Shown in pieces: positions 46,343-62,904 of a stretch of 64,000 nt of DNA (the stretch's first letter is position 1; the number at the start of each line of letters is the position of its first letter). Made by a program: the position numbers and the translations under genes. The notes beneath the pieces are model-generated. The model made no database searches and was not told the origin of the DNA. It was given only the letters and a program-made list of their open reading frames with translations. Origin of the DNA: an uncultured Candidatus Cloacimonadota bacterium (GTDB lineage Bacteria; Cloacimonadota; Cloacimonadia; Cloacimonadales; TCS61); contig CAZRXY010000101.1 of NCBI GenBank assembly GCA_964604155.1, positions 307 to 64,306 on the forward strand. Direction: 5' to 3'.

Positions 46343-47350
46343 TCAGATTTCAATCAGGGTATGTTTTGTTTTATCGATGATCTCTAATATTTCTTCTTTG
46401 CTCAAGAGCAGTTCACCATTATGTTTTCTTAGTTTCAACCTTCTGATGTTGTCATCAACTTCTTCGCGGCTGATTTTCACAATTTTTTTACAGAATTTAA
46501 AATCGGAGACGATTCTGATTCTTTTCCAGTCTGCGAGCTGGATATCAATAGAAATCACGTAAGGTACATTGTTTTCCAGCAAGTATATTGCATTAAGCCT
46601 GTATAGTCCGGGATTTAGGAATGATAATTCATAGCTGTGAACTTTATGTACAATTCTGGCAGTTTTTAGACTGTCTAAATGTTTGTCGGAATCCAAATAT
46701 TTACCGACTTCCCTGAAATCCTGAGTTTCCAGTGATTGCTTTAGTTTCTCAATTAAGTACATGATATTTCGATTCAATTTTGTGCCTGGTACCTTACAGA
46801 TGATCTTAAAATTTCCGGTAAATTTTATATAAAGAATAATTTCCTGCCTGATATTATAGAGCTTTGGGATAATGCTGTCTTCGGACAGATTATAGATTTC
46901 AGCCAGATATCCTGCATCTTTTTCCTGAACATAATAATCTCTTGCCAGCTCACGATCCGATTCACAGAAAATCTCAGGAGGTATCTCACTGATGATTTTT
47001 TCCAGATTAGGGTGGTCAATCAGGTCAGGATAATTTTCTGCCTCGCTAACTGCACCGATAAGCTGCAAAAACTCGGTATCACTTTTTAACCTATCGAGCA
47101 TCTGTAGCGAAAAGTTCCGTGCTACCTGATAAACCCATTTATCTGGTTTCTCCACCCGCTCTTTCCAGAGAAATAATTTAATAGTGGTTAATTGAGCTAT
47201 CTCCTGGGCAATATGAGACTTATGGCAGAAATGCTCACCGATAGTGAGTGCCTTCTGGTAATAATGTGAATAAAAACTATCCTCAGAAAATTTATTTTGC
47301 CAAGCCTCGCTCAAAATAACTCCTTTTAATATCTCTTTTGGGATGATCAA
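46343..47350 (-). CDS. ECF-like sigma-70 family protein with ~160-aa C-terminal extension
   Basis: Region-2-like: IAQEIAQLTTIKLFLW..PDKWVYQVARNFSLQMLDRLK. Region-4-like: ISEIPPEIFCESDRELARDYYVQEKDAGYLAEIYNLSEDSIIPKLYNIRQEI. The remaining C-terminal half is unassigned. The start is uncertain: TTG at 47350, or TTG at 47314, which is preceded by aaaggag. Confidence 0.5.
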   Translation of the reverse strand: MIIPKEILKGVILSEAWQNKFSEDSFYSHYYQKALTIGEHFCHKSHIAQEIAQLTTIKLFLWKERVEKPDKWVYQVARNFSLQMLDRLKSDTEFLQLIGAVSEAENYPDLIDHPNLEKIISEIPPEIFCESDRELARDYYVQEKDAGYLAEIYNLSEDSIIPKLYNIRQEIILYIKFTGNFKIICKVPGTKLNRNIMYLIEKLKQSLETQDFREVGKYLDSDKHLDSLKTARIVHKVHSYELSFLNPGLYRLNAIYLLENNVPYVISIDIQLADWKRIRIVSDFKFCKKIVKISREEVDDNIRRLKLRKHNGELLLSKEEILEIIDKTKHTLIEI

Positions 47351-48102: not shown

Positions 48103-48867
48103 TCAATAGAAGAGATTCAGATACGATCCCAATAACCAATCACCAAACAGTGTGTGAATGAATGCTCCAGTGATGAGAAATGGGCCAAAAGGAATTTCTC
48201 GGCTTCTATCTTTTCCTGAAATGATCACGATAGAAAGAGCAATGGCTGCGGCGATAAATATGGTGAACAGCACCCCATAAACGCCCAGGAAGGCACCAAT
48301 AGTGGCAATAAACTTGATATCCCCCCCTCCCATAGCTTCTCTGTTTAGCGAGTGGCTCACAGCTAAGGCAAGCAGGTAGAAGAAAAGAAAACCGGCACCT
48401 GCACCGGCAAGTGCTGGGAAAATATTTATATCTGAGGATTTTGCCAGAGCAAAAGCCAGACCGATGATCAATAGCGGGAGCGAGAGTTTATCGGGGATAA
48501 TCTGATGATGCAGATCAATAAAGAAAATGATAATAGAGAAACTGAAGAACACGAGATATTTGGCAAATACGATATTGAATTCATTTCCGAATCTCCAGAA
48601 AAGCAGCAGCCAGATAAGAGGTGTGATCAATTCCACCAGAAAGTAATTGAGTTCCATTTTTTCCCCACAATATTTGCATTTACCTTGCAGCAAGATATAG
48701 CTGATTATAGGAATATTATGGTAAGATTTTATATAGGCATGGCATTGTGGGCATTGCGATCTGGGTGTAATGAGTGAGAGCTTTCTGGGAAGCCTCCAGA
48801 TGCAGACATTAAAGAAGCTGCCAAAAGCAGCCCCGGTGATAAAGATAAAGAAATAGATAAGTGCCAT
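48103..48867 (-). CDS. pilD: Prepilin peptidase / N-methyltransferase (A24 family)
   Basis: Zinc-binding CPQCHAYIKSYHNIPIISYILLQGKCKYCGE. Catalytic Asp contexts IIFFIDLHHQIIPD and GGGDIKF. Confidence 0.9.
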   Translation of the reverse strand: MALIYFFIFITGAAFGSFFNVCIWRLPRKLSLITPRSQCPQCHAYIKSYHNIPIISYILLQGKCKYCGEKMELNYFLVELITPLIWLLLFWRFGNEFNIVFAKYLVFFSFSIIIFFIDLHHQIIPDKLSLPLLIIGLAFALAKSSDINIFPALAGAGAGFLFFYLLALAVSHSLNREAMGGGDIKFIATIGAFLGVYGVLFTIFIAAAIALSIVIISGKDRSREIPFGPFLITGAFIHTLFGDWLLGSYLNLFY

Positions 48868-48893: not shown

Positions 48894-48920
48894 AAAGGCT
48901 CGGGTCAAGAAGACCCGAGC
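48894..48920 (-). terminator. Hairpin with short U-tract between pilC and pilD (intra-operon terminator/attenuator candidate)
   Basis: Minus strand reads GCTCGGGTC-ttctt-GACCCGAGC-c-TTTTatt. 9-bp stem at 48898-48906 / 48912-48920. Confidence 0.45.
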
Positions 48921-48951: not shown

Positions 48952-50205
48952 CTATTTTGCACCAGAAGAGATGGCAAGTCCAAGATTGAAAATTGGCAGA
49001 TAAATAATAATAACTATAGTGCCGACTACAGCAGCCATAAGCACAATTAGAAGTGGTTCTATGAGTGATGAAAGTCTATCGATCACAGAATCCACGAGTT
49101 TTTCATAGAACTCAGCAGCTTTAGCAAGAAGCCTGTCCATGTCACCGGTTTCTTCACCGGTAGCCACGAGCTGCAGGAGCGTAGGAGGAAATACACCGGT
49201 TCTTTTGAGTGCTCCAGCTACCGTGTACCCCTCTTTAACAAGGTCACGTGCTTCGGCAACTGCTTTTTCCACAACTGCATTTTGTACTACATCCTGAGAA
49301 AGCTCCAGCGTGTCCATTATAGGCACACCGGCAGTCATCAAGATGCTGAAAGTCCTGGAAAATTTACTGAGAATAGAATTCTTCAGCATACCACCGAGTA
49401 CTGGAATATGCAATATCATTCTATCTATTATATATCTTCCGCGATCGCTAAGATAGATGAGGAAGACCGCCATAACCAGAGTAAGAATTATGAGGAAGAA
49501 ATAAAAGAGGTTTGCCCCGATCCAGTCAGCAACGTAAATTGCAATTTGAGTAGGTACAGGCAAATCTGCATTAAAATCTTCATATACTCTGGCAAACATG
49601 GGTATAATGAAATAGAATAGAATAAATGTTACCAGTATGAGGAAGAGAAGTATAAAAATCGGGTAGGTGAGAGCTGAAGTAACTTTTCTTTTGGTGTCTT
49701 CCAGTTTTTCCAGATACACGGCAAGTTCATCGAGCACTGTATGCAGCGTACCAGAGACTTCACCCGCTTTCACGAGAGAAACATACAGAGGATTAAAAAT
49801 ACCCGGGTGTTCTTCGAGCGCCTCTGAAAGGCTAAAACCCTTTTTGATGTCATTAGCAATTTTAACGAGCACTTTTCGGAATTTGTTATTCTTCTCGCTC
49901 TTTTCCAGATTGCTGATGGATTTTTCTATTGTAAGACCTGCTGAGAACATCGTAGCCATCTGTCTGGTGAAGAAAACAAGGGTCTTTAAGCCTACACCGG
50001 TACGCCATTTATAAATTTGCAACATCAATTTGTCAAATAGAGACATCTTTCCCCTGAAGGAACCTTCGGCAGCAGACTTCACTGTGATGACAGTATTGCC
50101 TTCAGCCGTCAATTTATCAACGGCTTCATCCAGTGAATTTGCCTTGATGATACCTTCGGAGCGAGCCCCTTTGACATCCTTAATAATATATTGAAAAGCA
50201 GCCAT
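48952..50205 (-). CDS. pilC: Type IV pilus platform protein (GspF/PilC family)
   Basis: 417 aa with duplicated T2SSF repeats (FTRQMATMFSAGLTI and FSRTFSILMTAGVPI) and 3 TM helices. Confidence 0.9.
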   Translation of the reverse strand: MAAFQYIIKDVKGARSEGIIKANSLDEAVDKLTAEGNTVITVKSAAEGSFRGKMSLFDKLMLQIYKWRTGVGLKTLVFFTRQMATMFSAGLTIEKSISNLEKSEKNNKFRKVLVKIANDIKKGFSLSEALEEHPGIFNPLYVSLVKAGEVSGTLHTVLDELAVYLEKLEDTKRKVTSALTYPIFILLFLILVTFILFYFIIPMFARVYEDFNADLPVPTQIAIYVADWIGANLFYFFLIILTLVMAVFLIYLSDRGRYIIDRMILHIPVLGGMLKNSILSKFSRTFSILMTAGVPIMDTLELSQDVVQNAVVEKAVAEARDLVKEGYTVAGALKRTGVFPPTLLQLVATGEETGDMDRLLAKAAEFYEKLVDSVIDRLSSLIEPLLIVLMAAVVGTIVIIIYLPIFNLGLAISSGAK

Positions 50206-50238: not shown

Positions 50239-51945
50239 CTATTCCACGACGGTAAATTTGATCACTTCGTTGATGGAAGTGTGTCCATCTTTCATTTTTA
50301 GGATGGCACTATCATGCAAAGAAAGCATGCCATTTTCAAGAGCAGCGTCGCGGATAAGGTCTTGATTAGCACCATTAAAAATGAGATGTCTGATCTTTGG
50401 AGTAACTTCGAGCATCTCAAATATTCCGGTTCTACCTGAATAACCGGTATTATCACAATGGACGCATCCAGTACCTTTCTTGAAATTAATTTTATCAGCA
50501 TCTTCTCTGGTCATCCCGATGTCTGCAATTTCCTGATCTGTGGGCTTATAATCCGCTCCACAATGAGGACAAATCCTTCTCACCAGTCTCTGTGCCATCA
50601 CAAGATTGAGAGAACTGGCAACGAGATAGGGCGGGATGCCAATATCGATTAAACGAGTAACGGTAGAGGGAGCATCATTAGCATGCAAAGTGGTGAATAC
50701 AAGGTGTCCCGTAAGCGAGAATTTGATGGCAATATCTGCAGTCTCGTGATCACGAATCTCACCTATGAGCACAATATCAGGGTCCTGACGAAGTACAGAC
50801 CGCAGCGCTCTGCCAAAGGTGAGACCAATCTTTTCATTAGCCTCAATCTGACAGATGCCATCAAGCCTGTATTCCACGGGGTCTTCGACGGTTACGATAT
50901 TGTTCTCAATATCCATGATCTCTTTAAGGGCAGCATGTAAAGTAGTAGATTTTCCGCTACCGGTAGGACCTGAAACTATATTAATCCCATAAGGTCTTCT
51001 GATCCATTTTTTAAACATATCCAAGTTATCTGAGGTGAAGCCAAGAGTAGTGAGCGTGAAGCCAAATTCGCCTTTATCCAAAAGACGCATAACTACCTTT
51101 TCACCAACAACAGTAGGCGTGATAGACACTCGAACATCTACGCTTTTAACTGCAGTTTTAAGAGAAATATGACCATCCTGTGGCAATCTTCTTTCTGCAA
51201 TATTCAGTTTCGACATCACCTTAACAATAGATACAAGTCCCGGGTGCATATGAATGGGAGGAGACATTACTTCACGCAGAGCTCCATCTATACGGAATCT
51301 CACGCGAGTATTTTTACTCAGAGGCTCGATATGAATATCGGTGCAACCAGATTTTATGGCTTCGGTGATAATGAGATTGATCAATTTTACAACCGGTGCA
51401 TCTTCATCACCTTTTGCATCTATACTGATCTCATTTTCGTCCTCATCTACAGCAACGAATTCAAAATTACCAACGGCATCCTCAACCTGTGAAGAAGTCC
51501 TGATTGATTTATAGTACCTTTCCAGGGTATCAGTAAGCACACTGTCGCCGATTAAAAGTGGAGTGATCGGCAGATCAATGATCTTTTTTAAACTGTCCAG
51601 AATACCAATATTTTCAGGATCGGTCATTGCCACAAGAACACTCGTTTCCGTTTTCTTAATGGCAATACACCTGTTTTCCACAGCAAAGGGTTCCGGTATA
51701 ATTTTTACGACAGACACATCGAGGCCGAGGAGGTCATCCTCAGCCACCAATGCGATATCAAGCTGCTGCTGCAAAGCTTTTAGCAGGTTCTTTTCTGATA
51801 AATAACCGAGCTTTACCAAGGTCTCCCCGATCTTTAGTCTGAAATTGTTTTGCTTCACCAGCGCTTCTTTCACCTGATCTTCAGTGACGAAGCCCAAATG
51901 AACCAGGATCTCACCTAAACGGGCAAATTGGGGATTAAATGACAT
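50239..51945 (-). CDS. pilB: Type IV pilus assembly ATPase (GspE/PilB family)
   Basis: N-terminal T2SSE_N-like LGEILVHLGFVTEDQVKEAL. Walker A SGPTGSGKSTTL. Asp/His boxes. Tetracysteine CPHC..CVHC. Confidence 0.9.
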   Translation of the reverse strand: MSFNPQFARLGEILVHLGFVTEDQVKEALVKQNNFRLKIGETLVKLGYLSEKNLLKALQQQLDIALVAEDDLLGLDVSVVKIIPEPFAVENRCIAIKKTETSVLVAMTDPENIGILDSLKKIIDLPITPLLIGDSVLTDTLERYYKSIRTSSQVEDAVGNFEFVAVDEDENEISIDAKGDEDAPVVKLINLIITEAIKSGCTDIHIEPLSKNTRVRFRIDGALREVMSPPIHMHPGLVSIVKVMSKLNIAERRLPQDGHISLKTAVKSVDVRVSITPTVVGEKVVMRLLDKGEFGFTLTTLGFTSDNLDMFKKWIRRPYGINIVSGPTGSGKSTTLHAALKEIMDIENNIVTVEDPVEYRLDGICQIEANEKIGLTFGRALRSVLRQDPDIVLIGEIRDHETADIAIKFSLTGHLVFTTLHANDAPSTVTRLIDIGIPPYLVASSLNLVMAQRLVRRICPHCGADYKPTDQEIADIGMTREDADKINFKKGTGCVHCDNTGYSGRTGIFEMLEVTPKIRHLIFNGANQDLIRDAALENGMLSLHDSAILKMKDGHTSINEVIKFTVVE

Positions 51946-51959
51946 TTATGCAGCTCCTC

Positions 51960-54452
51960 TTAGTCTGTGTATCTAAACAAGGTTATCGTCTGATTTACAG
52001 ATGTATTTGTTCCAAATATATTCGCTGTTATTGCAGCAGAAGTCATTCCCGGAGGTGCCGGAACCGGCGGCAGACATTCATATTTATGGAATACTACCCA
52101 CTTATAAAGCCTGCCAAGATGATTTTCATACCAGCCAGTGTAGCCGTCGTGAGGATCTCCATCAAGATTAAGCCCATCCCAATCGTATGCTTGAAGCACT
52201 ACAGGATCGGTTATATCAGATTCCAGAGGATGAATATCTAAATCAGTGGGCTCGCCCAGCGACGATGTAAAGAGTATTCTCTGGTTATTAACAGGATTTC
52301 CCTGACCATCATGGACAGTTACACGACACTGGGTGAGCTTATCTTCCATATCACCTTCGATAATCCAGTCGAGATGGGCAGGTACGCAAACCATGGTGAG
52401 CTGTCCCATCTGAAGCGGGAGCAGCAGGTCTCCTTCAAAGGTGATTTCAGAACCTACATCTACCTTGACATGGACTTTTTCATTAGTATATGAACCATCA
52501 TAGAGCAGGTATGAATAAGCAGTTCCTTCCAGGGTGTCGCCATTAGCATTCTCATTACCCACAAAGGCATTAGCTGCTACGATAGATGCATATTGAGGGA
52601 CTGGATCAAGATAGAAATATGCTGCAGTACCATTGCCAACGGGGTTACCTTGATCATCAGTGATCAGGGCAGCTATCTGCACTCTCCACATACCACCACC
52701 CATATCGTCTCCACTGTCGTATCCGCCAATAGTAAATTCACAATTGCTGGGAGGTCCGGCTTGAACGATGATATTTGGCTTGGAAGCCGAGATCACAGTA
52801 CCTTGCAGGTTCTTGCACCAGGCTCTAATCTTAATAATCCCCGAATCTGAACCGCTGTTTACTGAAACAACCGCCACTCCATTGGAAGCAACTGTACTAG
52901 TGGAATCTGAGAGATTATAGACAACATTATTTATATTGCTGCCCGTGTTCCAATTTCCTTCAGGTCTCACCTGGAATTTAAACCAGACTTCCACCGGTGA
53001 ATCTATCATGTTCCCATTCATATCAAACAGGTTAACGGCTAATTCTGCCGATTCTATACCACCTGTACCTTGAACGTCTATTGAAATCTGCTGCTGATTA
53101 ACAAACTGGATAGAATTGACGTCGTCAGATATTACTGTGATAGCAGTGGTAGCTGCCGCAGAATCCACTACTGCGCTGATCTGAGCAACTCCTGCCTGTA
53201 TTCCAGCAGAATAAGTGGCTACCGCTATTCCACCTTCAGCGAGAGGAACAGGGCTCATAATACTGCCAAGATCACTAGTGAAGCTCACCACATAGTCACT
53301 TCTGACGGGATTGCCAAAACTGTCTCGCACGTAAGCCCATACATAAAGGTCTTCCGAACTGTTAACCGGGATGACGCTTTGAGGTTCATTATCCGCATTT
53401 CTGGGGATAAGTGTCATCTGAGTAGGCCTTCCAGCCAGGTAAGTGAGCTCCTGAGAATCAGACATCATGTTTCCATTGCCATCACTATCTATTATAGCAG
53501 TAACCGTTCCGGTTCCCGCCTGGGTGCCGGCATTGAGAAATGCTCTGGCAGAACCATTAGATGTTGAAGATGTTACGGATTTTCCCAGATATGTCTGATC
53601 AGACTGGCTAACCTGGAAAAAGCCTAATTGAGTCTCAAAAGTTATTTGTGTACCGTTAGGTACAGGACCTGTTACATTTGCTGCGGACGCTTCAATTGTC
53701 CGCACCTTATTTATTGTGATATCATTGCTCACCACATCCAGTTCGAGACTTGTGACCACTGGCTGCGGAGCGATAACCACAGAGATAGTGGTATCTGTAA
53801 CGCCTACGAAGGCATCTATAGAAGCTGTGCCGATGATACCTGCATCCCAGAATGTGCTTTTGGCAATACCACTGGAATCTGTAGGAACACGCGTGATAAT
53901 ATTGCCAATATCAGCTCTGAAATATACATCTTCATTAGTAGCTGCAAAGCCATCCTGATCCTTTACTCTCACTTCAATTATACTTGATGTGATTCCATTA
54001 TCGAGATATATAAGACCCGGAGAAGCACTAATTCTATCTATTTTTAGATGAGGATTAGATTTTATTTCTACGGAATCTACTAATACCTGGGATGAACTGC
54101 TACCCTCGACAGTTGCAGTGATATGAGCCATACCTACGCGTCCATCATCATTAAAATGGGTGGCAGCTACGCCAGATTCATTCGTGTATACTTTGCCCTG
54201 GATGTATCCCAAATCTGCTTGAAATGATACTGGAATCCCAGTTGCAGGATAACCCTCATTATCTTCAACAGTCACTCGGACTTCTGAATTTGTGGTTAAA
54301 TTTTGATCTGCATATAGTGATCTGGGGTTGATGACCATTGAGGTGATCTCATAATTGATGGTATCACCTTTCCTGGTATCACAGCCAGTAAAAAGCAGAA
54401 TTGCCGGGATAATTACAGCAAAAAGTATTACCCTTGCTTTCTTGAACTTCAT
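51960..54452 (-). CDS. 830-aa lipoprotein built of repeated bacterial Ig-like (Big_1/invasin-like) domains, encoded inside the pilus operon
   Basis: Lipobox ILLFTGCD. At least six ~95-aa repeats share the pattern ..S.V.V.V.D..G.P......V.F.ADLG.I......T...G.A...F......G.A.I.A.V (for example EVRVTVEDNEGYPATGIPVSFQADLGYI and IIEVRVKDQDGFAATNEDVYFRADIGNI). It lies 3 nt after the pilQ stop and 14 nt before the pilB start. Confidence 0.7.
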   Translation of the reverse strand: MKFKKARVILFAVIIPAILLFTGCDTRKGDTINYEITSMVINPRSLYADQNLTTNSEVRVTVEDNEGYPATGIPVSFQADLGYIQGKVYTNESGVAATHFNDDGRVGMAHITATVEGSSSSQVLVDSVEIKSNPHLKIDRISASPGLIYLDNGITSSIIEVRVKDQDGFAATNEDVYFRADIGNIITRVPTDSSGIAKSTFWDAGIIGTASIDAFVGVTDTTISVVIAPQPVVTSLELDVVSNDITINKVRTIEASAANVTGPVPNGTQITFETQLGFFQVSQSDQTYLGKSVTSSTSNGSARAFLNAGTQAGTGTVTAIIDSDGNGNMMSDSQELTYLAGRPTQMTLIPRNADNEPQSVIPVNSSEDLYVWAYVRDSFGNPVRSDYVVSFTSDLGSIMSPVPLAEGGIAVATYSAGIQAGVAQISAVVDSAAATTAITVISDDVNSIQFVNQQQISIDVQGTGGIESAELAVNLFDMNGNMIDSPVEVWFKFQVRPEGNWNTGSNINNVVYNLSDSTSTVASNGVAVVSVNSGSDSGIIKIRAWCKNLQGTVISASKPNIIVQAGPPSNCEFTIGGYDSGDDMGGGMWRVQIAALITDDQGNPVGNGTAAYFYLDPVPQYASIVAANAFVGNENANGDTLEGTAYSYLLYDGSYTNEKVHVKVDVGSEITFEGDLLLPLQMGQLTMVCVPAHLDWIIEGDMEDKLTQCRVTVHDGQGNPVNNQRILFTSSLGEPTDLDIHPLESDITDPVVLQAYDWDGLNLDGDPHDGYTGWYENHLGRLYKWVVFHKYECLPPVPAPPGMTSAAITANIFGTNTSVNQTITLFRYTD

Positions 54453-54455
54453 TAT

Positions 54456-55847
54456 TTACTCCTCTTCGTTTTCTTCAATCAAAATCCGCTTGTCGAGTCT
54501 CTCATCAGTTATCCTGATTTTGTATTCTTCGTTGATATCAACAATTCTGGGAGTAACTTCTATGATCAAATCTGTTTTTTCCATCGAGATATTCTTATGC
54601 CGGAAAAGTCCTCCGATAAAAGGAATGTCGCTCAGGAAGGGGAGATTGCTGTTTGTTGTGATAATATTTGTGGAAAGCAATCCGCCGACAACTATTCTCT
54701 GACCATTTGGCACAGTAACTGTAGAAGTAATTTTTCTTACTTTGGTGCGGGGAATTCTGCCCTGCACAAGTTCGGTTACTGAGCTCACTTCCGGTTCGAT
54801 GATTGTGGTAATCTGATTATCACGATTCACTGTAGGACGAACTCGTAACATGATTCCCACTTCTTCACGCTCAACCTGAATCTCATCATCCTCATCACGG
54901 ACTACATAAGGCACTATCTCACCTATATGGATATAACCCTCTTCTCCGTTCAATGAAGTGATGTGCGTGTCTGTGAGCAATTCCGCAGCATTATTCTCCA
55001 ATAGAAAATCCAAGGTGATATCAAATGCTGTCAACTGACGCGAGAAATGACCGATGTCATTAAAACCATCAAGTTTCTGGAAATATTGATCATCAGGAAC
55101 TACGTTAAGGTCTTGCAGATCACCATGAGGTGACGAACCTGTATCATCCGTATAGCCATAAGGCAGTCCAATTCCCTTGGAATTAGTGGGATCCTCTGCT
55201 ATTATCGTTGTGAGACGGTTAAGCCTCTGCCAGTCGATACCATACTTCTCTGCTTCGGTAACATGCACTTCAATCAATCTGGCGCGGATTTCGATCTGTT
55301 TTTGAGGAACATCTATTTCCTCTATTTTTTTGATAATTTCGGCATAGGTCTCAGGATTTGCCCTAATTACAAGTGCATTCTGACCCTCTATTTCTGAAAA
55401 CATTCCAGGCATAGATTTCATTGCGTCAACTATCTTCGTTGCATCTACATAATTGAGGTGAACTACATAAGTGCGTTCCCCTATCTCTTCATCAATCTTC
55501 TGTTTATCGCCAACGATAAACGTTTTCTCTCCTATCAGTCTGTATGAAAGACCGACAGATTTAACTACCAGGGAAAGTGCCTGCTCAATCGGGACATCCT
55601 TGAGATGGATAGTGATTTTCTTGTCTGCAGCACTATCACCTTCTTTTTCATCAGTCGCCATGGCGAGAACGATATTGCAATCACTCATCTGTGCCATGGT
55701 CGCAATAATGTTGGAAACCTTTCCATCCGTTGCATCAAGGCTGATTTTGTTATCCAGAAGGTTAGCTGCCATCAGGGAAAAAGACCCCGTAAGCAATATA
55801 ACTATTATGCAAAAAGATAACGATGCTTTAATGTTGAACGATTTCAT
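54456..55847 (-). CDS. pilQ: Type IV pilus secretin
   Basis: Signal peptide. C-terminal secretin domain VTVPNGQRIVVGGL..SNLPFLSDIPFIGGLFRHKN..EKTDLIIEVTPRIV. Confidence 0.85.
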   Translation of the reverse strand: MKSFNIKASLSFCIIVILLTGSFSLMAANLLDNKISLDATDGKVSNIIATMAQMSDCNIVLAMATDEKEGDSAADKKITIHLKDVPIEQALSLVVKSVGLSYRLIGEKTFIVGDKQKIDEEIGERTYVVHLNYVDATKIVDAMKSMPGMFSEIEGQNALVIRANPETYAEIIKKIEEIDVPQKQIEIRARLIEVHVTEAEKYGIDWQRLNRLTTIIAEDPTNSKGIGLPYGYTDDTGSSPHGDLQDLNVVPDDQYFQKLDGFNDIGHFSRQLTAFDITLDFLLENNAAELLTDTHITSLNGEEGYIHIGEIVPYVVRDEDDEIQVEREEVGIMLRVRPTVNRDNQITTIIEPEVSSVTELVQGRIPRTKVRKITSTVTVPNGQRIVVGGLLSTNIITTNSNLPFLSDIPFIGGLFRHKNISMEKTDLIIEVTPRIVDINEEYKIRITDERLDKRILIEENEEE

Positions 55848-55868: not shown

Positions 55869-56444
55869 TTACCAATTGTATTCTCTAACTGATTTGGCTT
55901 TGCTATCAGTTTTAAGTTGTGCCGGTTTGGGGGGGATTTCACTAAGCTCCATATCATATTGATTGCCTTTATAAGTGTAACTGATCATACCAGGCTGAAT
56001 GTCATTTATGGTGCCTCGGGCTCCAGCCGAAAAGTCTCCACCCAGATCAAACATATCTCCAATCCCATAGAGCGTTGTCATACCTTTATAGCTGATAGCA
56101 GCCTTCTTCTCTCCAATCTCCGGAATGATAGTCATTTCAAGCCGAATTAAACTCTCCACTTCTTCACGCCATTGCATTTCGAGGTCTTTCTGGGTCTTCA
56201 CGATCAGATTCTGCTCAAGAGGATCCTTTTCTACTGTGAAATAAAAATTCTTCCTATCTCTGATCGAAGAATCTATCTCCTGAATCTGACTCAGCAATCT
56301 CTCACTTAATGCCATCTTTTTATAAATGGATTCTTCCGGGACTTCCTGTACCTTTTTATACAAAGACGAAGCCTTGATACCATAAGCTAATAGCAAGATC
56401 ACCACAAGGATAATTACAAAGTCTTTTAAATATTTCTGTTCCAC
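55869..56444 (-). CDS. Hypothetical membrane-anchored protein in the PilP position
   Basis: Called from synteny only (between pilO and pilQ). It has an N-terminal TM (FVIILVVILLLAYGI) rather than a lipobox. No motif recognised. Confidence 0.35.
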   Translation of the reverse strand: MEQKYLKDFVIILVVILLLAYGIKASSLYKKVQEVPEESIYKKMALSERLLSQIQEIDSSIRDRKNFYFTVEKDPLEQNLIVKTQKDLEMQWREEVESLIRLEMTIIPEIGEKKAAISYKGMTTLYGIGDMFDLGGDFSAGARGTINDIQPGMISYTYKGNQYDMELSEIPPKPAQLKTDSKAKSVREYNW

Positions 56445-56445
56445 T

Positions 56446-57003
56446 TTATACCTCCTTTATGATCTTGAATGTAGAGAGATCTATAGCCACTTTGTAGCGA
56501 GTCTCACTAACGGTATCAATAACTTCGGATTTGCCTCTGGCTGCATAAGGTACCACATCAAGAGTCTTTACCTTTATGATATAGTCCAACGCTTCCAGAT
56601 CTGTAAGAAATTTACCCAGTTGCACGTATGTACAGTTTAGCTCCATCGTATATAGATGCTCCAAAAGGTCTCCGCCTATTGAAGATACATTTTTATGAGA
56701 AAAAGAGTGAATGGCAAATTTATACTTATCTGCCATATCGTGAATTTCCTTGGTAAATGTACCAATTTCGTCAACATCAAATCGTCTCTCGGTTGTTATG
56801 CTGCCAAGTATCACTCTGGAAACCTGACGCAATTGCTCATTGAGCACTTTTGCACTATTCAATTTTTCCTGTTCAACTTTAATTCTTTCGTCATACCGGT
56901 CTATACGAGACATTTTTTGAGAGATTATCTGGGAGCTGAAATGGAAAAACAGTATCGTTACCAATATCATAACTGAAAGTAAAATTAGGTATTGCTGTCT
57001 CAT
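56446..57003 (-). CDS. pilO: Pilus alignment-complex protein PilO-like
   Basis: N-terminal TM followed by a coiled coil, 185 aa. The start overlaps the pilN stop by 4 nt. Assigned from the pilMNO synteny. Confidence 0.65.
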   Translation of the reverse strand: MRQQYLILLSVMILVTILFFHFSSQIISQKMSRIDRYDERIKVEQEKLNSAKVLNEQLRQVSRVILGSITTERRFDVDEIGTFTKEIHDMADKYKFAIHSFSHKNVSSIGGDLLEHLYTMELNCTYVQLGKFLTDLEALDYIIKVKTLDVVPYAARGKSEVIDTVSETRYKVAIDLSTFKIIKEV

Positions 57004-57596
57004 CTTCCTCTCCTTGTTGATATTCTCCCGCCTCTAGTGGTGCAATCTATCTGAAATCTTATGATCTCAACATCTTTCTCAAAATCACGTAATGACCTGA
57101 CGAAGTAGATATCCTCAAAATCTACACTGATCTGTTCGTTGTTCTTTAGGTTATTAATAAATTCATTGATCAGATCAAATTCTTTCTCATCTCTGTCTAA
57201 GCGGGTGATGCCGTAAATGCTCAGTACATCGCTTTTAAATGAGAAATTGGTTATTGCGATCTTATCGCTGGTTTTTTCTGATAATGCTACGAGTTTCTTT
57301 GACCAGAAAATGCGGTCTGTGCTGATTTCGGCAATATTGGTCAAATCCTTGGAAGACAGATATTGATCGTTTTCCTGATAGGACTTGATTTCCTGTGTGA
57401 TATTGCTCAAGAGGCTGCGGCGATTCTGAACTTTTTGCTCAAGTACACCATTATAATAAAGCACAAAACCATAAATAATGGCTGTGAGTATTACAAAAGC
57501 AAGAGCTGTTGTCCGAAAGGCTCTTTTCTGTTTAAGAACTGCCTGCTTGAGTTCGCCGTATTTGTTTAAGTTAATTTTAAAATATAACTGATTCAT
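57000..57596 (-). CDS. pilN: Pilus alignment-complex protein PilN-like
   Basis: N-terminal INLNKY (compare the INLLP motif that binds PilM), then a TM (ALAFVILTAIIYGFVLY) and a coiled coil. Confidence 0.7.
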   Translation of the reverse strand: MNQLYFKINLNKYGELKQAVLKQKRAFRTTALAFVILTAIIYGFVLYYNGVLEQKVQNRRSLLSNITQEIKSYQENDQYLSSKDLTNIAEISTDRIFWSKKLVALSEKTSDKIAITNFSFKSDVLSIYGITRLDRDEKEFDLINEFINNLKNNEQISVDFEDIYFVRSLRDFEKDVEIIRFQIDCTTRGGRISTRRGR

Positions 57597-57606
57597 AGAT
57601 TCTCCT

Positions 57607-58689
57607 CTATTCTGGTCTCAAAGCCAGGCCCAGTGCCAGTGCCAGCTGAGGATCGTTTGCATCATCAAATTTCTCTATACCTTCTATATCTGCCATAGGA
57701 TTGAATATTTCTGTGGGGATATTCAATTGCTCTGCAAGATATTCTGGTAAGCCAATTAGCTTCGCCGTCCCGCCTACTAAAAGGATTTTGCGGAAATCAC
57801 TATCCCCTGCTTCCTTCACATAGAATCTTAGCGAACGCTTTACTTCCATTGCAATCTGTTCGATGGCGGTCTTTTCTGTGATATCCAAAGCCAGAAGGGA
57901 ATCTCCGGTCACCTTCTTTTTGTGGGCATCCACTCCGAATTCCATCTTCATCTTTTCTGCTTCTTCAAATGAACACTTATGCAGCTTTGCCAAATCCTTA
58001 GAATAATGGTAGCCACCCCAACTGATATCGCGGGTAAAAAACTTTGCCCTTTTGCTGAATACTACCATATTCGTCTTGTATGCTCCCAGATTCAGCAGCA
58101 CATATACGCCGTCATCTGTCCCGGAAGTTAATGCAAAACTGTTTGCCACTGCCAAAGCCTCCAAATCAACAACATTTGGTTGAAGACCCCCAGAACTTAA
58201 AATCTGGGTGTGCTCTTTCAGCAAAGACTTGGTGGTGGAAGCTAAAAGGATATTCATATTATTCGTCTTTTCTTCCACACTTAATACCTGATAATCAAGA
58301 ACCATCTCTGATCCACTGATTGGCAGATGCTTTTTTGCTTCAAAGAACAGGGCTGATTCAAGCTCCTCATCCGGCAGAAATATTGTCTTGATCTGCTTTA
58401 TGCTGGTGTTGTCTCCTCCTACAGAGGTTACCAGATGACTCACTTTCTTGGGATTGATCTTCAGGTTGCGAAGCATCCCGGTTAAAACCGGAGCATACCT
58501 GTCTGACATAAGGTCTGACTGGTTATGCTCCAATCCTTCCGGTATAGTTGACCTGACGGCATAATTCATCAGTTTAAATCCCTCATGAACCCGCTTAAGG
58601 TGAACCAGCTTAATGCTGTGTGTACCTATATCAAGCCCTATTGACTCTTTAAACTTCTTCTGTTTTTTCTTCTTTGCCATATATCTCAC
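57607..58689 (-). CDS. pilM: Actin-like pilus assembly ATPase PilM
   Basis: IGLDIGTHSIKLV, LLNLGAYKTNMVVF and LLVGGTAKLIGLPEYL, which fit the ASKHA/PilM pattern. Confidence 0.85.
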   Translation of the reverse strand: MRYMAKKKKQKKFKESIGLDIGTHSIKLVHLKRVHEGFKLMNYAVRSTIPEGLEHNQSDLMSDRYAPVLTGMLRNLKINPKKVSHLVTSVGGDNTSIKQIKTIFLPDEELESALFFEAKKHLPISGSEMVLDYQVLSVEEKTNNMNILLASTTKSLLKEHTQILSSGGLQPNVVDLEALAVANSFALTSGTDDGVYVLLNLGAYKTNMVVFSKRAKFFTRDISWGGYHYSKDLAKLHKCSFEEAEKMKMEFGVDAHKKKVTGDSLLALDITEKTAIEQIAMEVKRSLRFYVKEAGDSDFRKILLVGGTAKLIGLPEYLAEQLNIPTEIFNPMADIEGIEKFDDANDPQLALALGLALRPE

Positions 58690-58747: not shown

Positions 58748-60673
58748 TTAATGCCTGGGTGGTACCTTCATTGTCCAGCCAGATGAACTGTAGAGCAGAC
58801 TTGTGCTGCCCATACCTTCGTAAACCTGGGGATAATGTGGTGGTAACATCCCATAATCTATTCTGTCGTCCCAGTGATAATCCTTGTCATAACCAGTAGA
58901 ACCGTGCGTCCCATCGTATAACCACTCTTCTATATTCCACTCTTGACCACCCGGCGGGTGATTAAGCGGATCAGTGCCAGACCTGTGGATATAACCACGT
59001 CTATACTGCTGGATTCCACCAAACATGTGTATTATTCCCCGCTCTCCTACTATTGTCGTTTGGCTTTCTGGCCATACAGGATTATACCAGGGCCAGTCTG
59101 TTCCATAAGGCGGAACCAGGGGATTTGAATAATTCGAGCTTTCGTAGGGGTAACCACAGGCAGGATAACCTGGAGCCGGGGCATTACCATGCATCTGAAA
59201 ACCAGGGTCTAAGTTCCAGTAGGGGCTGGGGGGGAAGATGAATTTGTGAAAATCAGGATACTCCACATCCCATTGGGTGCCATTAGGCATAAAGATTGTA
59301 AATGGAGGGGTGGAACCATGAGGATGCTGATAGGCAAAAGAAAAAATGCCTTCATAATGAGTATTAAGATTACCATATACCTCTAAGTCGCCTTTGCCTA
59401 TCGCTGCATAACAGCCATAAAGATAAATGCTGCTGCAATTTGGAGACATCACTTCATTGGATACCGGATCCCTGTGCTTGTATTGAATATAGATTCTTTC
59501 TTCGGACACTAAGCCAAACATATCCTGGCAGAGACCTTCATCAGGCGGGTCTCCGGGAGCTATACTTTGATAGGTGATATCACCTGTGATGTATATCGTG
59601 TCTGCACAGCCCCAGGTCATCTTCCCGCTAATATTACCCTCTATCCATAATTGACAATGGACAAATACAGAATTATTCTGGACGTTCAGGCTGAATGAAT
59701 TATCGTCCCAATCATATTTCTTGACATCAATCACATTAGTCCAGATGGAATCGCCCACTGGAAAGTTTGGATGTTCGGGATCAGGGAAAGAATTATAAAC
59801 CGTGAAGGTATCACGCTCTGTGATGATATCTGCATACCTGCATGTAGCCGTGTTCCCGTCAATCTGGACGTAGAGGATATCACGATCCAATGAAGTGTCA
59901 AGAGTGTAACCATGTGCTCTGATATCAATGGCTTTGCCTGCAGAAATATTGATGTAGGCAGAATTCTCGATGTAGCCTCCGCGGAATATGTCGTCCATGG
60001 GCGCAGAATTTACTGCCGGTTGACCGGTTGCATAATTCATGATCCTACCGTTAGTAGTAACCAGTGCATTAAAGGTGGGCCAGCCATTATTGTTGCCACC
60101 ACCAGCTTGCTGGATCCAGATATCGTCATTGCTGTGGACTGGGCCATTCAAAACGTCCGGTCCCCAGAATTTTACTCTATCATCGCCGGTATATTCATCA
60201 TTTTCTGATGATTCCCACATCGTGAAATACTGATATTGTGCCAGACTCCTTCCTGAGAGTACGCTTTCGGCATATCTTTTGACTGGTGATTTGTAAGTAT
60301 TAGCTCCAACCTGGAATGCCCGGCCCCGTTTTACCGTGATGAGTGTAGGACCTATCCGGTTCTTGCCATCACTGATAACCGGCTGGTTATCTATCCTGTA
60401 GGTTGTCACCCTGTTATTACTGGATATCTCTATGTCATAATCACTATTGGGAAAGATATTAGGGGCATCCTGCATGATAATTGCGGTTCTTAGCTGCTCA
60501 GAGCGCAAAAAAGTCTCCGCCTGAAGAACATCGTTGGCATATTGTACCTGCATATTATCGAATCTTACTATTCCCATTAGCGAGATCGAAGAAATCACCG
60601 AAATCAAGATTACCACAGCAGCAGTACTCATCAGCATGATCGCACCCTTTTCACTTAATAAGAGCTTTTTCAT
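58748..60673 (-). CDS. 641-aa PilX_N-type pilin-like protein with large Trp/Tyr/Pro/His-rich C-terminal domain (candidate pilus-tip factor)
   Basis: The N-terminus LSEKGAIMLMSTAAVVILISVISSISLMGIV matches the PilX N-terminal pattern (..RGAALxxxLxxLxxL). The rest is unassigned. It occupies the position where pilX/pilY1 usually sit. Confidence 0.55.
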   Translation of the reverse strand: MKKLLLSEKGAIMLMSTAAVVILISVISSISLMGIVRFDNMQVQYANDVLQAETFLRSEQLRTAIIMQDAPNIFPNSDYDIEISSNNRVTTYRIDNQPVISDGKNRIGPTLITVKRGRAFQVGANTYKSPVKRYAESVLSGRSLAQYQYFTMWESSENDEYTGDDRVKFWGPDVLNGPVHSNDDIWIQQAGGGNNNGWPTFNALVTTNGRIMNYATGQPAVNSAPMDDIFRGGYIENSAYINISAGKAIDIRAHGYTLDTSLDRDILYVQIDGNTATCRYADIITERDTFTVYNSFPDPEHPNFPVGDSIWTNVIDVKKYDWDDNSFSLNVQNNSVFVHCQLWIEGNISGKMTWGCADTIYITGDITYQSIAPGDPPDEGLCQDMFGLVSEERIYIQYKHRDPVSNEVMSPNCSSIYLYGCYAAIGKGDLEVYGNLNTHYEGIFSFAYQHPHGSTPPFTIFMPNGTQWDVEYPDFHKFIFPPSPYWNLDPGFQMHGNAPAPGYPACGYPYESSNYSNPLVPPYGTDWPWYNPVWPESQTTIVGERGIIHMFGGIQQYRRGYIHRSGTDPLNHPPGGQEWNIEEWLYDGTHGSTGYDKDYHWDDRIDYGMLPPHYPQVYEGMGSTSLLYSSSGWTMKVPPRH

Positions 60674-60687: not shown

Positions 60688-61368
60688 CTATGAAGACACG
60701 GAAGTAGGAGTGTTGCCAATAAACACCTTAGTCTGATACTTTATCGTTCTGGTGTTCATCCGTATATCACTCTCGACCGTCTGTCCATTTCTGCGTTCGC
60801 GAAAGCGAACCTGTGCTTCCAGGTTTATTCTCAGTAACCGGACGTTTCCATCCGAATCAACTTTCAGTGGGGAGAAAGCCGTACCGGGATTTGTTATTCG
60901 ATATTTAAGTTGCCCGTCTATACGGGTATTACTCTCAGGGAATATCGGGATATCGCGGGAATTGGTGAGAGCTGAGGAAAACATGGCTGCCCCATAATTT
61001 CCACGCAATTTTAAAGTCCCTCCCGAATCCAGAGTCAATACTGACTCTATTGGATAAGCAGGAGAACTATCCACCTTCATCCTGATGGAATTGCCGCCCT
61101 CACTCAATATTACCTGGTTTGCGGATAATAAACCGCTCAGGGATTGATTGTTCGTGTTCACTCCTCGCTGCACATAGCCATACCGGACAGTCTCTATTGC
61201 CTGAAACAAATCGTCCTGGAGCTTAGTGTATTCATGAATGTCCTGATAGGCATAGATGAAATTGATTACTGACATCGTCATCACTATCATCACTATCACA
61301 CCAAGCGGTAGAGCGGCTATCAGATCAGGGAGAAGTATCCCTTTTTCATTATGTAGTTTATTGAACAT
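60688..61368 (-). CDS. Minor pilin-like protein (PilW-position) with non-canonical prepilin N-terminus
   Basis: NEKG|ILLPDLIAALPLGVIVMIVM: Gly, then a hydrophobic helix, with Pro at +4 and Asp at +5 instead of Glu. Overlaps the upstream gene by 11 nt. Confidence 0.5.
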   Translation of the reverse strand: MFNKLHNEKGILLPDLIAALPLGVIVMIVMTMSVINFIYAYQDIHEYTKLQDDLFQAIETVRYGYVQRGVNTNNQSLSGLLSANQVILSEGGNSIRMKVDSSPAYPIESVLTLDSGGTLKLRGNYGAAMFSSALTNSRDIPIFPESNTRIDGQLKYRITNPGTAFSPLKVDSDGNVRLLRINLEAQVRFRERRNGQTVESDIRMNTRTIKYQTKVFIGNTPTSVSS

Positions 61369-61849
61369 CTACACCACTCCTTTTCCAGTAATAATCCTCA
61401 CGCAAATAAACGCTGTGAGTTTTGTTCTGAGCTGATCCAAGATTCGCCGAAGGCTTCTCCTGCCAACTCACCGTCACTCGGGCTTCATCCCTGAAGGTAC
61501 TCAGTAAACTCGGTACCGAATAGGGATTACCTCCGGTTGATCCCGTAACTGTCACTGTAGCTAATATGCTGCGCCCCTTATTGTCGTCTAATACTAAGAC
61601 CTCTGTAAAATGATTGATAGAAGGGCGGCTATAAGAACCCATATTGCGATTGTTATACTTGATCTCTTCTATATAACCCTGCCCCAGAAGCAAAGCTGCA
61701 CGCGTGTGATAATTCACATCTGCCTGAGCTTTAGCATATTCTATGGACATGAACAATCCTAATAAAGCTATTGATACTATAAGCGTCACCGCTAATACGT
61801 GAATCAATCCGAAACCAGACTCATTACGTATATCTACTATTTTATTCAT
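61358..61849 (-). CDS. Minor pilin-like protein (PilV-like) with His at position +5
   Basis: NESG|FGLIHVLAVTLIVSIALLGLF resembles PilV (G|FSxIEVLVAxxxxxxGLLG), but Glu+5 is His (codon at 61799-61801). The start overlaps the pilT stop (TAATG). Confidence 0.55.
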   Translation of the reverse strand: MNKIVDIRNESGFGLIHVLAVTLIVSIALLGLFMSIEYAKAQADVNYHTRAALLLGQGYIEEIKYNNRNMGSYSRPSINHFTEVLVLDDNKGRSILATVTVTGSTGGNPYSVPSLLSTFRDEARVTVSWQEKPSANLGSAQNKTHSVYLREDYYWKRSGVDVQ

Positions 61850-62904
61850 TAGAAACCTACGCCGGTTGCAAACATTTTGGGATTATCGGCAACCTGTTCC
61901 GCTACGGTCCTATCGATCAAACCATTCATTACATGATTATATAATGACTGATCAACGGTTTGCATACCTTCCTTGGTTCCACTCTGGATCACCGAAGGTA
62001 TCTGGTAAGTTTTTTCTTCACGAATAAGATTCCGTACGGCAGCATTAGCGATCATTATCTCTAATGCCGGTATACGACCATCTATATCCTTACGAGGTAA
62101 AAGTGTCTGCGCCACCACTGCCTGCAGAGATTCCGATAGCATGGAGCGTACCTGTCCCTGCTGCTCCTTGGGGAACATGTCTATGATCCTGTCGATAGAC
62201 TTGGTGGCACTGGATGTGTGAAGCGTGGCTAAAACAAGGTGACCGGTCTCTGCGGCTGTCAATGCCAGAGACACCGTCTCCAAATCTCGCATCTCGCCCA
62301 CAAGGATCACATCCGGATCCTCTCGTAAAGCAGAACGCAATGCTGCCGTAAATGACCACGTGTCGTGTCCTAATTCCCGCTGGTTCACCAGCGAATTCTT
62401 ACTCACATGAACAAACTCGATCGGGTCTTCTATAGAAATGATATGACACTGCTTCTTCTCGTTGATGTGATCTATCATAGTCGCCAGTGTTGTCGATTTA
62501 CCACTTCCGGTGGGACCCGTTACCAGAATCAAACCCTTTTGTCGTAACGCAAGCCTTGATAAAATCTCCGGTAAATGGAGCTCGTCAAAACTCTTGATCT
62601 CATTTGGGATTACTCGAAAAGCACATGCCCGTCCATTAACCTGATGAAAGGCATTTACACGAAATCGAGTTTCATCATCCAGTTTGGTGGAAAAATCAAA
62701 TTCCAGCCGTTCCAGAAAAAGCGTCTTCTGACTTTCATTCATCGTTGAAAATATCAGATTATCTATCTCTTCCTGGGTCATTACTGGCAGATTCAGCTTC
62801 TTCATCCAACCATAGACTCGCACCATCGGTACCGAGCCCGCACTGATATGAAGGTCAGACGCTCCGGCATCTGCCGTAAATTGTAGTAATTCCCGTATGG
62901 TCAA
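61849..62904 (-). CDS. pilT: Twitching-motility retraction ATPase
   Basis: 351 aa. ASDLHISAGSVPMVR, Walker A GPTGSGKSTTLA, ALREDPDVILVGEMRD and LVLATLHT. Confidence 0.9.
   Translation of the reverse strand: MTIRELLQFTADAGASDLHISAGSVPMVRVYGWMKKLNLPVMTQEEIDNLIFSTMNESQKTLFLERLEFDFSTKLDDETRFRVNAFHQVNGRACAFRVIPNEIKSFDELHLPEILSRLALRQKGLILVTGPTGSGKSTTLATMIDHINEKKQCHIISIEDPIEFVHVSKNSLVNQRELGHDTWSFTAALRSALREDPDVILVGEMRDLETVSLALTAAETGHLVLATLHTSSATKSIDRIIDMFPKEQQGQVRSMLSESLQAVVAQTLLPRKDIDGRIPALEIMIANAAVRNLIREEKTYQIPSVIQSGTKEGMQTVDQSLYNHVMNGLIDRTVAEQVADNPKMFATGVGF

Follow-up and report, generated by a model that had tools for sequence, protein, structure and literature searches.

A type IV pilus operon on the minus strand of a 64,000-nucleotide stretch of DNA from an uncultured Candidatus Cloacimonadota bacterium (GenBank assembly GCA_964604155.1, contig CAZRXY010000101.1, positions 307 to 64,306; the whole stretch is hereafter called the window) contains, between the secretin gene pilQ and the assembly ATPase gene pilB, an open reading frame with an ATG start (51960-54452) that encodes a lipoprotein of 830 residues built of immunoglobulin (Ig)-like repeats, for which the working name IGLP is used here. 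A member of the same family occupies this slot in all the pilus loci examined, and the protein is organised as a lipid anchor, a stalk of varying domain number and a constant C-terminal head. The favoured reading, which is tentative and given a little less than an even chance, is that IGLP is a surface-displayed, adhesin-like lipoprotein whose export is aided by the PilQ machine, the motif C-D-x-R behind its lipidated cysteine diverting it from default sorting and its last domain, D7, serving in docking. The surface location, the export via PilQ, the adhesive function and the docking of D7 to a pilus-tip protein are what we infer from the gene position, the domain architecture and the family comparisons described below.

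Position of the IGLP gene

Only three nucleotides separate the pilQ stop codon (TAA, 54456-54458) from the ATG of the IGLP gene (54450-54452), and 14 nucleotides lie between its stop codon (51960-51962) and the ATG of pilB (51943-51945). These distances agree with the same-strand spacing given in the original prediction, which had been made from the letters of the window alone, and the two neighbours that it named were recognised by Pfam as a secretin and a PilB/GspE-type ATPase. A GAGGAG Shine-Dalgarno sequence stands upstream of both starts, that of the IGLP gene being formed by the final codons of pilQ. Gaps of 3 and 14 nucleotides leave no space for a promoter or a terminator around the gene and, together with the Shine-Dalgarno sequences, support the co-transcription that had been proposed. 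A consensus promoter scan returned 42 sites against 41.4 expected from shuffled sequence, which is no excess and is uninformative on an internal promoter.

A protein search identified 53 homologs of IGLP, the named ones belonging to Cloacimonadota/Cloacimonetes (75% identity in Stygibacter australis) and the most distant being Zixibacteria-like sequences with 29% identity, which lie outside pilus operons. Where the source databases give the homologs a name, it is 'hypothetical protein' or 'invasin domain 3-containing protein'. A synteny scan with one genome per species, seeded with IGLP itself, yielded 16 genome loci, and a family member was present in the pilQ-to-pilB position in all 16; the order pilM-pilN-pilO-PilP-like-pilQ-IGLP-pilB-pilC-pilD was found in every one of them that has flanking DNA. 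To offset the seeding of this set with IGLP, three PilQ homologs were picked irrespective of it, and a Big_1 lipoprotein gene, encoding 707, 486 and 1203 residues, respectively, was located immediately 3' of pilQ in all three. Family members also stand directly before pilB in two more divergent loci, L021 and L022, in which PilB is about 53-54% identical to that of the window; PilQ is present only in L022 of these two and is 35% identical. Two of the source genomes (L009, L012) are labelled Armatimonadota; their PilQ (62-63%) and PilB (76%) show the identities seen in Cloacimonadota genomes, and the label is likely to result from mis-binning or mislabelling.

Departures from the common order were observed in two places. 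A gene for a 548-residue Wza-like polysaccharide-export protein with Poly_export and SLBB domains (L022:5269-6915) is situated between pilQ and the IGLP gene in L022. In one Cloacimonadota lineage (L020:9141-13418 and L026:5209-5289), pilB is reduced to its first 27 codons, which are followed by unrelated genes, the pilQ-IGLP pair being intact, so that either the operon was rearranged or pilB was relocated.

The original prediction had proposed the synteny of related pilus operons as a check. The gene is found after pilQ in 16 of 16 and 3 of 3 loci and in distant lineages, including the one at 35% PilQ identity; because a family member holds the pilQ-to-pilB slot in all loci examined, IGLP is not a passenger, and a passenger insertion was rejected.

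Strict and deep synteny with pilQ, a spacing of three nucleotides and persistence of the pair after the loss of the adjacent pilB would also suit a structural accessory of the secretin complex, acting as a periplasmic tether or collar, or as an extracellular collar or conduit atop PilQ through a capsule or surface layer; in the periplasmic version the lipid would reside in the inner or the outer membrane and the head would be docked on the machine. PilQ is short, with an STN domain, one N-domain and no AMIN domain detected by Pfam, so reach or anchoring may come from elsewhere, and the polysaccharide-export gene between pilQ and the IGLP gene in L022 is compatible with a conduit of this kind. 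A precedent exists in Deinococcus radiodurans, the secretin complex of which has a 15-mer belt made of an Ig-like (IPT/TIG) lipoprotein and a cap made of another lipoprotein (PMC10828601). A role as secretin accessory, its two versions taken together, is possible and yet unlikely.

Stalk and head of IGLP

Over its whole length IGLP matches the Pfam families Invasin_D3 (PF09134; 94 bits, 8.4e-27, cut-off 33) and Big_1 (PF02369; 81.6 bits, 4.4e-23, cut-off 34.9). An AlphaFold2 model based on a 23-sequence alignment is all-beta, with a predicted local distance difference test (pLDDT) value of 85.5 and a predicted template modelling score (pTM) of 0.38, and consists of seven Ig-like beta-sandwiches (residues 34-131, 136-228, 233-339, 345-441, 445-564, 570-677 and 684-827 for D1 to D7, respectively), all encoded on the minus strand. 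D1-D4 make up the stalk (53127-54362), for which per-domain Pfam scans gave Big_1/Invasin_D3 matches of 8e-11 for D1 (54057-54362), 2e-6 for D2 (53766-54056), a weak 0.014 for D3 (53433-53765) and 5e-8 for D4 (53127-53432); in these single-domain scans D1 (42.8 and 41.2 bits) and D4 (33.9 bits) are above the cut-off, and D2 and D3 are below it. D5-D7 constitute the C-terminal head (51963-53126), delimited by its conservation in orthologs and by the AlphaFold2 model, from which the borders of D5 (52758-53126), D6 (52416-52757) and D7 (51963-52415) were taken. D5 alone weakly matches another Ig family, Glyco_hydro2_C5, and D6 and D7, scanned singly, have no significant Pfam match. The earlier description of at least six Big_1 repeats therefore holds for the fold, with seven Ig-like domains in the model, and goes too far for the family, to which about four of the seven can be assigned. 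No tandem repeats were found at the DNA level in the IGLP gene of the window.

Modelled alone, the head reached a pLDDT of 90.1 and a pTM of 0.70, which suggests a fairly rigid unit of three beta-sandwiches with a short helical insert. Its best three-domain fold matches are FdeC (4e9l, template modelling (TM) scores 0.39/0.47) and InvD (5ldy, 0.37/0.42), the rest being generic Ig strings. A PDB sequence search with IGLP gave no match, and Pfam, applied to the whole protein and to each domain, detected no beta-barrel, LysM, FlgT, TPR (tetratricopeptide repeat), lectin or peptidoglycan-binding domain. Absence of a peptidoglycan-binding domain, and of any known secretin-binding domain by Pfam, also tells against a secretin accessory. 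The type IX C-terminal sorting domain, Por_Secre_tail, was not found even at E<=1 on D7 alone, and an identity as type IX cargo was rejected for the lack of it.

With the full-length model, Foldseek returned only generic Ig and macroglobulin (MG) strings, the top matches being alpha-2-macroglobulin and complement MG-domain strings, and Pfam reports a weak match to MG4 of 22.6 bits. An inner-membrane-anchored periplasmic Ig/MG protein that would guard the periplasm near the open secretin, like bacterial alpha-2-macroglobulin, could be imagined from these matches, the more so as Asp at position +2 would by the E. coli rule keep IGLP in the inner membrane. However, the TM-scores are at most 0.2, the MG4 score is below the cut-off of 24.7, a thioester CxEQ, a bait region and A2M domains are all lacking, and growth of the stalk to a protein of 1572 residues does not fit. 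The chance of such a function is close to negligible, and an alpha-2-macroglobulin-like identity was rejected on the missing thioester and A2M domains.

When the seven domains were mapped on the orthologs, the lipobox, a minimum of one spacer domain and the block D5-D6-D7 proved to be constant, whereas the Big_1 domains lying between them vary in number. The head is present in every operon-linked ortholog of Cloacimonadota unless a contig end intervenes, and the stalk has between 1 and about 12 domains, giving total lengths of 486-1572 residues. The shortest ortholog, from Tenebribacter davisii (486 residues), has one Big_1 domain and the head, and the longest, from Stygibacter frigidus (L007; 1572 residues), has approximately twelve Big_1 domains. 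The gene of the latter species contains 8.0 tandem copies (L007:1246-3729) of a 312-bp unit corresponding to one Big_1 domain, as detected by Tandem Repeats Finder, and since the copies are 88% identical the amplification is regarded as recent. FN3-like domains replace Big_1 in some relatives. Periscope surface proteins are characterised by stalks of variable length made of tandem domains with high DNA identity, and the class includes stalks of 2-47 Invasin_D3 repeats (PMC9704523).

A stalk of 1 to about 12 domains (approximately 4 to 50 nm when extended), amplified eightfold in one species and replaceable by FN3-like domains, is difficult to reconcile with the fixed architecture expected of a secretin accessory. 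Thus, the secretin-associated stalk or spacer of the original prediction keeps the modest chance given above in its general form, and proteins of 486-1572 residues agree poorly with a periplasmic spacer of fixed length. The lipid anchor, the variable rod, the conserved head, the tandem amplification, the paralogs (see below) and the invasin/FdeC-like fold are instead features by which IGLP resembles surface stalk proteins, and among the functions originally suggested an operon-encoded adhesin fits them best.

A search of 1.84 billion proteins with a profile of the head only gave 1974 representatives at E<=0.001, of which 317 (clusters at 50% identity) had E<=1e-30, and the head was nearly always at the extreme C-terminus of the matching proteins. 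D5-like domains recur within giant proteins of 2000-6900 residues. Three tandem genes of about 400 residues each (L027:4787-8406) encode the head only, with ordinary signal peptides in place of a lipobox; they lie on a 3.9-Mb contig far from pilus genes and adjoin a gene for a protein with a type IX sorting domain. Because head-only relatives occur elsewhere, the head appears to be a more general extracytoplasmic module, and linkage to the pilus a trait of the lipoprotein subfamily. Non-lipidated tandem relatives so far from pilus genes are again not what a part of the secretin complex would lead one to expect.

Sorting signal, paralogs and export

The lipoprotein nature of the product, claimed originally from the letters LFTGCD, is confirmed in the translated reading frame. 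Its N-terminus, MKFKKARVILFAVIIPAILLFTG-C-DTRK, has a basic n-region and a hydrophobic h-region, and the signal peptide (residues 1-24; 54381-54452, minus strand), as read from the sequence, ends in the lipobox L-F-T-G-C (residues 20-24), which is followed by Asp. The lipobox is kept in the operon-linked homologs of Cloacimonadota, the few non-lipidated variants being located outside pilus operons. Of 20 distinct family members compared, 19 have Asp at +2 together with Arg at +4, so that the mature N-terminus is C-D-x-R, in the window C-D-T-R (54372-54383, minus strand). None of the six other lipoprotein candidates in the window, admittedly a small sample, has this motif; they begin with C-S, C-G, C-R, C-E or C-W. 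Two invariant positions in an otherwise variable region of proteins that are about 40% identical point to a function, and C-D-x-R is considered a candidate sorting signal.

In systems of the E. coli type, Lol avoidance is conferred by Asp at +2. Lipoproteins that the T2SS (type II secretion system) displays carry specific motifs immediately after the cysteine, which are GGG or ND(N/D) in Acinetobacter, and PulA requires Asp at P2' for Lol avoidance (PMC12802150). Asp at +2 is common to IGLP and PulA, and C-D-x-R may have a sorting role in Cloacimonadota. The surface-lipoprotein export signal (LES) of Bacteroidota consists of C-X-K-(D/E)2 or of S-D-D-D-D directly after the cysteine (PMC5080379); C-D-x-R differs from both forms, and the presence of this signal in IGLP was rejected.

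The Asp residue also bears on the new pilotin class that was among the functions originally suggested, in which IGLP would escort PilQ monomers to the outer membrane and stabilise the multimer. It is a lipoprotein encoded directly after the secretin gene, the operon contains no TPR pilotin, and the acidic tail of about 25 residues at the C-terminus of PilQ could serve like an S-domain. However, all the known pilotins are small TPR or alpha/beta proteins, whereas IGLP is an all-beta rod of 830 residues and of variable length in the family, without a TPR or other pilotin fold; a residue that mediates Lol avoidance in the best-studied systems runs counter to the requirements of a pilotin; a chaperone would have no use for paralogs or for tandem amplification of the stalk; and a TPR lipoprotein candidate is encoded elsewhere in the window (30497-32380). 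A pilotin is therefore very improbable and the least supported of the three functions.

One or two IGLP paralogs are encoded directly after pilD in several loci (L001:8001-13098; L002:8001-10478; L005:12458-14485; L021:7001-9562). In the paralogs D4 is exchanged for an extra N-terminal Big_1 domain and the head is retained. The window has no paralog in this position and carries a sigma-70-like reading frame there instead. Between the operon copy and the paralog of the same genome, D5 and D6 are 43-53% and D7 is 66-70% identical, whereas between orthologs of different lineages D7 is the least conserved domain of the head, with 26-43% identity, and D5 and D6 are more conserved. For the distant pair in L021 the identities are 76-89% over the C-terminal half and 40-50% over the stalk. 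Synonymous sites are saturated throughout the paralog comparisons (pS 0.6-0.8), at amino-acid identities of 66-89%, and the similarity of the heads is thus ascribed to purifying selection; gene conversion was rejected as its cause for the same reason.

A D7 that is constant within a genome and divergent between lineages suggests a lineage-specific endogenous partner. A partner of this kind would be expected of a secretin accessory as well, and the near-equal length of the operon copy and the paralogs in L001 and L002 (816-831 residues), in spite of differing domain sets, may likewise be counted in favour of one. A candidate partner of the head is the product of b641 (58748-60673, minus strand), a protein of 641 residues and of unknown family with a pilin-like hydrophobic N-terminus; it is syntenic in relatives, has no match in Pfam, NCBIfam or PDB sequence searches and is probably a large pilus-tip or minor-pilin-type protein. 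Co-variation was examined in 8 taxa with a mirror-tree style test, using partial Spearman rank correlations that control for the PilB, PilC and PilM distances and Mantel permutation. The divergence of D7 tracks that of b641 (partial Spearman 0.86-0.94, permutation p 0.0004-0.002), a hint from a weak test, as it comes from few and non-independent taxa and may reflect shared fast evolution. No such tracking is seen between D7 and PilQ (partial r 0.14, p 0.28), contrary to what a secretin accessory would predict, or between D7 and the PilP-like protein (r 0.16).

The same data can be set against the possibility that IGLP is an independent surface adhesin which uses another route, such as a yet undescribed surface-lipoprotein pathway of the type of the Fibrobacteres-Chlorobi-Bacteroidetes (FCB) superphylum, and belongs to the operon for co-regulation only. 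Long-range attachment by the pilus and short-range adhesion would simply be expressed together, with no need of a physical or secretory link; the architecture is adhesin-like throughout; paralogs exist outside the operon core and related head-only proteins elsewhere; the ortholog of the distant L022 locus begins with C-S-E-D-D, resembling the Bacteroides export signal, and is the only ortholog to do so; and Bacteroidota, which also belong to FCB, need no secretin to flip lipoproteins to the surface (PMC5080379). On the other hand, co-regulation rarely fixes a gene in one slot after pilQ across lineages at 35% PilQ identity, C-D-x-R is unlike the Bacteroidota signal, and the pattern of D7, the same within a genome and differing between lineages, points to an endogenous rather than an environmental partner. 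An adhesin independent of the machine is thus rather improbable.

For a surface-displayed lipoprotein that the PilQ machine helps to export, the following course of events can be proposed. IGLP would be produced together with PilQ and PilB from one transcript and, following Sec export, lipidated on Cys24, and C-D-x-R would hold it back from the default lipoprotein sorting route. The pilus machine would then carry it across the outer membrane via the PilQ secretin, as the T2SS does with PulA and InvL and type IVb pili do with TcpF and CofJ. At the surface it would stay tethered by its lipid, the Big_1 rod of lineage-specific length projecting the head D5-D7, and the head would provide a short-range adhesion that complements the attachment mediated by the pilus. 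Passage through PilQ is supported by the lack in IGLP of a type IX C-terminal domain, by which other large surface proteins of the organism are probably exported. A more far-reaching version, in which the type IVa machine is a dedicated lipoprotein display system and IGLP and its paralogs dock via D7 on a tip complex containing b641, are pushed through PilQ on pilus extension and remain lipid-tethered at the surface, is doubtful and should be treated as speculative.

Beside the reservation on the D7-b641 correlation, several observations weigh against export of IGLP to the surface through PilQ. Location, route and ligand are all inferred. The system is a type IVa one, with PilT, PilM, PilN and PilO, and we know of no lipoprotein cargo of type IVa pili. 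Lipoprotein display by the T2SS of Acinetobacter and Klebsiella requires a GspN/AsmA-like gene, and none was seen among the operon genes. As far as we are aware, Asp at +2 is established as a sorting signal in some Proteobacteria only, and the mature N-terminus in the window, C-D-T-R-K-G-D, does not match the Bacteroidota export signal. A fixed slot amid the machine genes, with a spacing like that of translational coupling, would be equally expected of a stoichiometric machine subunit. No lectin-like tip domain was found in the head by AlphaFold2 or Pfam. The length of IGLP is steady at 830-833 residues among close relatives in the clade of the window, and with 76-78% identity, against 78-79% for PilN and PilO, the protein is no faster in its evolution than other envelope parts. 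The proposition that IGLP evolves much faster than the machine was found to be partly true, as it is faster than PilQ, PilB and PilC and similar to PilN, PilO and PilD.

The pilus operon and known systems

The operon comprises, in the order of the minus strand, on which all its genes lie, the genes for the pilin, pilT, two minor-pilin-like genes, b641, pilM, pilN, pilO, a gene in the PilP position, pilQ, the IGLP gene, pilB, pilC and pilD. The major pilin (62918-63343) has an N_methyl match of 1.5e-10 and similar scores as GspG and PilA. It is followed by pilT, encoding a retraction ATPase of 351 residues, a size typical of PilT (61849-62904; T2SSE 1.9e-49), and by the minor-pilin-like genes for proteins of 163 residues (61358-61849; weak PilV match, 18 bits) and 226 residues (60688-61368), each with a pilin-like hydrophobic segment at the N-terminus. 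Downstream of b641 are pilM (57607-58689; PilM_2 6e-46), pilN (57000-57596; PilN 7e-4, weak) and pilO (56446-57003; PilO 9e-4, weak), and then a gene for a 191-residue protein in the PilP/GspC position (55869-56444) that has a membrane anchor, is not a lipoprotein and is conserved in synteny; it has no Pfam match itself, and its orthologs have weak T2SSC or TcpS matches. The short secretin PilQ has 463 residues (54456-55847; Pfam Secretin 3.7e-37, STN and one Secretin_N) and scores 176 bits as GspD and 163 bits as PilQ in NCBIfam, both under the cut-off. On the other side of the IGLP gene are pilB (50239-51945; T2SSE 2.3e-128, TIGR02538 596 bits), pilC for the platform protein (48952-50205; T2SSF 1.6e-59) and pilD for the prepilin peptidase (48103-48867; A24_N_bact and Peptidase_A24). 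For pilin, secretin and ATPase alike, the scores as type II secretion counterparts are about as good, and the system is called type IVa-like because PilT and PilMNO are present.

Further features of the window deserve mention. The conserved acidic tail of PilQ (residues about 438-463; 54456-54530, minus strand), with the consensus ...DERLExxLIxExxxE, follows the secretin domain and could be an S-domain-like docking segment. Between pilC and pilD lies a strong terminator-like hairpin (48898-48920, minus strand) of 9 pairs, of which 7 are G-C, with CTTTTATT behind it; by this hairpin pilD may be uncoupled in part from the operon. The reading frame after pilD (46343-47350, minus strand; 335 residues, TTG start) has a weak Sigma70_r2 match of 19 bits and may encode a divergent sigma or regulatory protein. 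Approximately 20 kb from the pilus operon, a gene on the same strand (30497-32380) encodes a protein of 621-627 residues with a possible lipobox I-L-S-C and C-terminal TPR repeats, which could be a pilotin candidate of the PilF/Tgl type. Two large secreted proteins of 623 and 1306 residues, encoded on the plus strand (28-1899 and 1913-5833), have weak Por_Secre_tail matches of 22.2 and 25.7 bits, respectively (cut-off 27), and judging from these sequences a type IX system probably serves other surface proteins of the source organism.

Cloacimonadota are uncultured bacteria that abound in anaerobic digesters and anoxic waters. The literature on them mentions type IV pilus genes and not the IGLP gene, and no description of such an Ig-like lipoprotein as a member of a pilus operon was found in the literature searched. 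Few gene sets of bacteria are as well charted as type IV pilus operons, and yet this one includes a large gene of conserved position that is annotated as 'hypothetical protein'. If IGLP is exported via PilQ, lipoprotein display, an emerging and as yet little understood function of the T2SS, would become a property of type IVa pili, and of the FCB superphylum, too, and C-D-x-R would be a simple, testable sorting-signal motif. If the machine is a lipoprotein display system, IGLP would be without precedent among the cargo of type IVa pili, both as an operon-encoded protein and as a lipoprotein, and would represent a phylum-wide class of accessory genes marked by C-D-x-R; if it is a structural partner of a minimal secretin, it would found a new class of secretin accessory proteins. 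Either reading has a bearing on the attachment of Cloacimonadota to particles or syntrophic partners.

Among known systems, the PilF/PilW/Tgl pilotins, PilP and TsaP share with IGLP the genetic or physical neighbourhood of PilQ, and PilP and the pilotins are lipoproteins too. The folds of these type IVa secretin partners are TPR, the HR domain and LysM with a FlgT-like domain, in contrast to the Ig rod of IGLP; PilP, an HR beta-sandwich, is encoded between pilO and pilQ, a slot filled here by the gene of the 191-residue protein, whereas the IGLP gene follows pilQ. GspP (DR_1364) and GspT (DR_0940) of Deinococcus radiodurans are lipoproteins, one of them Ig-like, and integral parts of an unusual secretin complex in a phylum that, like the one of IGLP, is non-proteobacterial; unlike IGLP, they are single-domain proteins of 155-208 residues that form a ring or cap, without a stalk and head, and DR_0940 is encoded in another operon than the secretin gene DR_0774 (PMC10828601). 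The inverse autotransporters (type Ve), such as intimin, invasin, FdeC and InvD, resemble IGLP in their rod of Big_1/Invasin_D3 domains, variable repeats and functional C-terminal end, but have an N-terminal beta-barrel, with or without LysM, and a C-type-lectin tip, none of which is present in IGLP, where a lipid anchor is found instead.

Closer to the proposed route are TcpF of Vibrio cholerae and CofJ of enterotoxigenic Escherichia coli, which are encoded in their operons, bind the minor pilin at the tip and exit via the secretin of a type IVb pilus (PMC10120004, PMC6048534, PMC9565799). Like IGLP, they are encoded within a type IV pilus operon; they act in colonisation, and their binding to a tip pilin may be compared with the tracking of the putative tip protein b641 by D7, for which the evidence is weak. 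They differ in being soluble, non-lipidated proteins that are not Ig arrays and belong to type IVb systems of enteric Proteobacteria, whereas IGLP is a lipidated Ig rod in a type IVa system. PulA of Klebsiella is, as IGLP, a lipoprotein with Asp after the acylated cysteine and a gene linked to secretion genes, and it passes a secretin as a large folded protein and is then lipid-tethered on the surface, as proposed for IGLP. However, PulA is a proteobacterial enzyme transcribed divergently beside its operon, while IGLP is an Ig rod encoded between the secretin and ATPase genes.

InvL of Acinetobacter baumannii is an invasin-like Ig-domain lipoprotein adhesin without a barrel, whose surface exposure requires the T2SS secretin (PMC9245377). 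It shares with IGLP the N-terminal lipobox in the absence of a beta-barrel, the invasin-type Ig domains, the link to a secretin-based type IV filament machine and a short motif after the cysteine that is unlike those of ordinary lipoproteins. Compared by description, InvL has 492 residues, three Ig domains and a lectin-like cap, whereas IGLP is made of seven Ig-like domains and lacks a lectin cap; the gene of InvL lies outside the secretion operon and that of IGLP inside the pilus operon; the post-cysteine motifs are GGG or ND(N/D) in the InvL type and C-D-x-R in IGLP; and the machine of InvL is a true T2SS that needs GspN, whereas that of IGLP has PilT and PilMNO, with no GspN-like gene seen in the operon. 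An invasin-like lipoprotein that goes with a type IV filament machine is thus a known kind; as a component of a pilus, IGLP would be categorically new if its reading as an accessory or as tip cargo is right.

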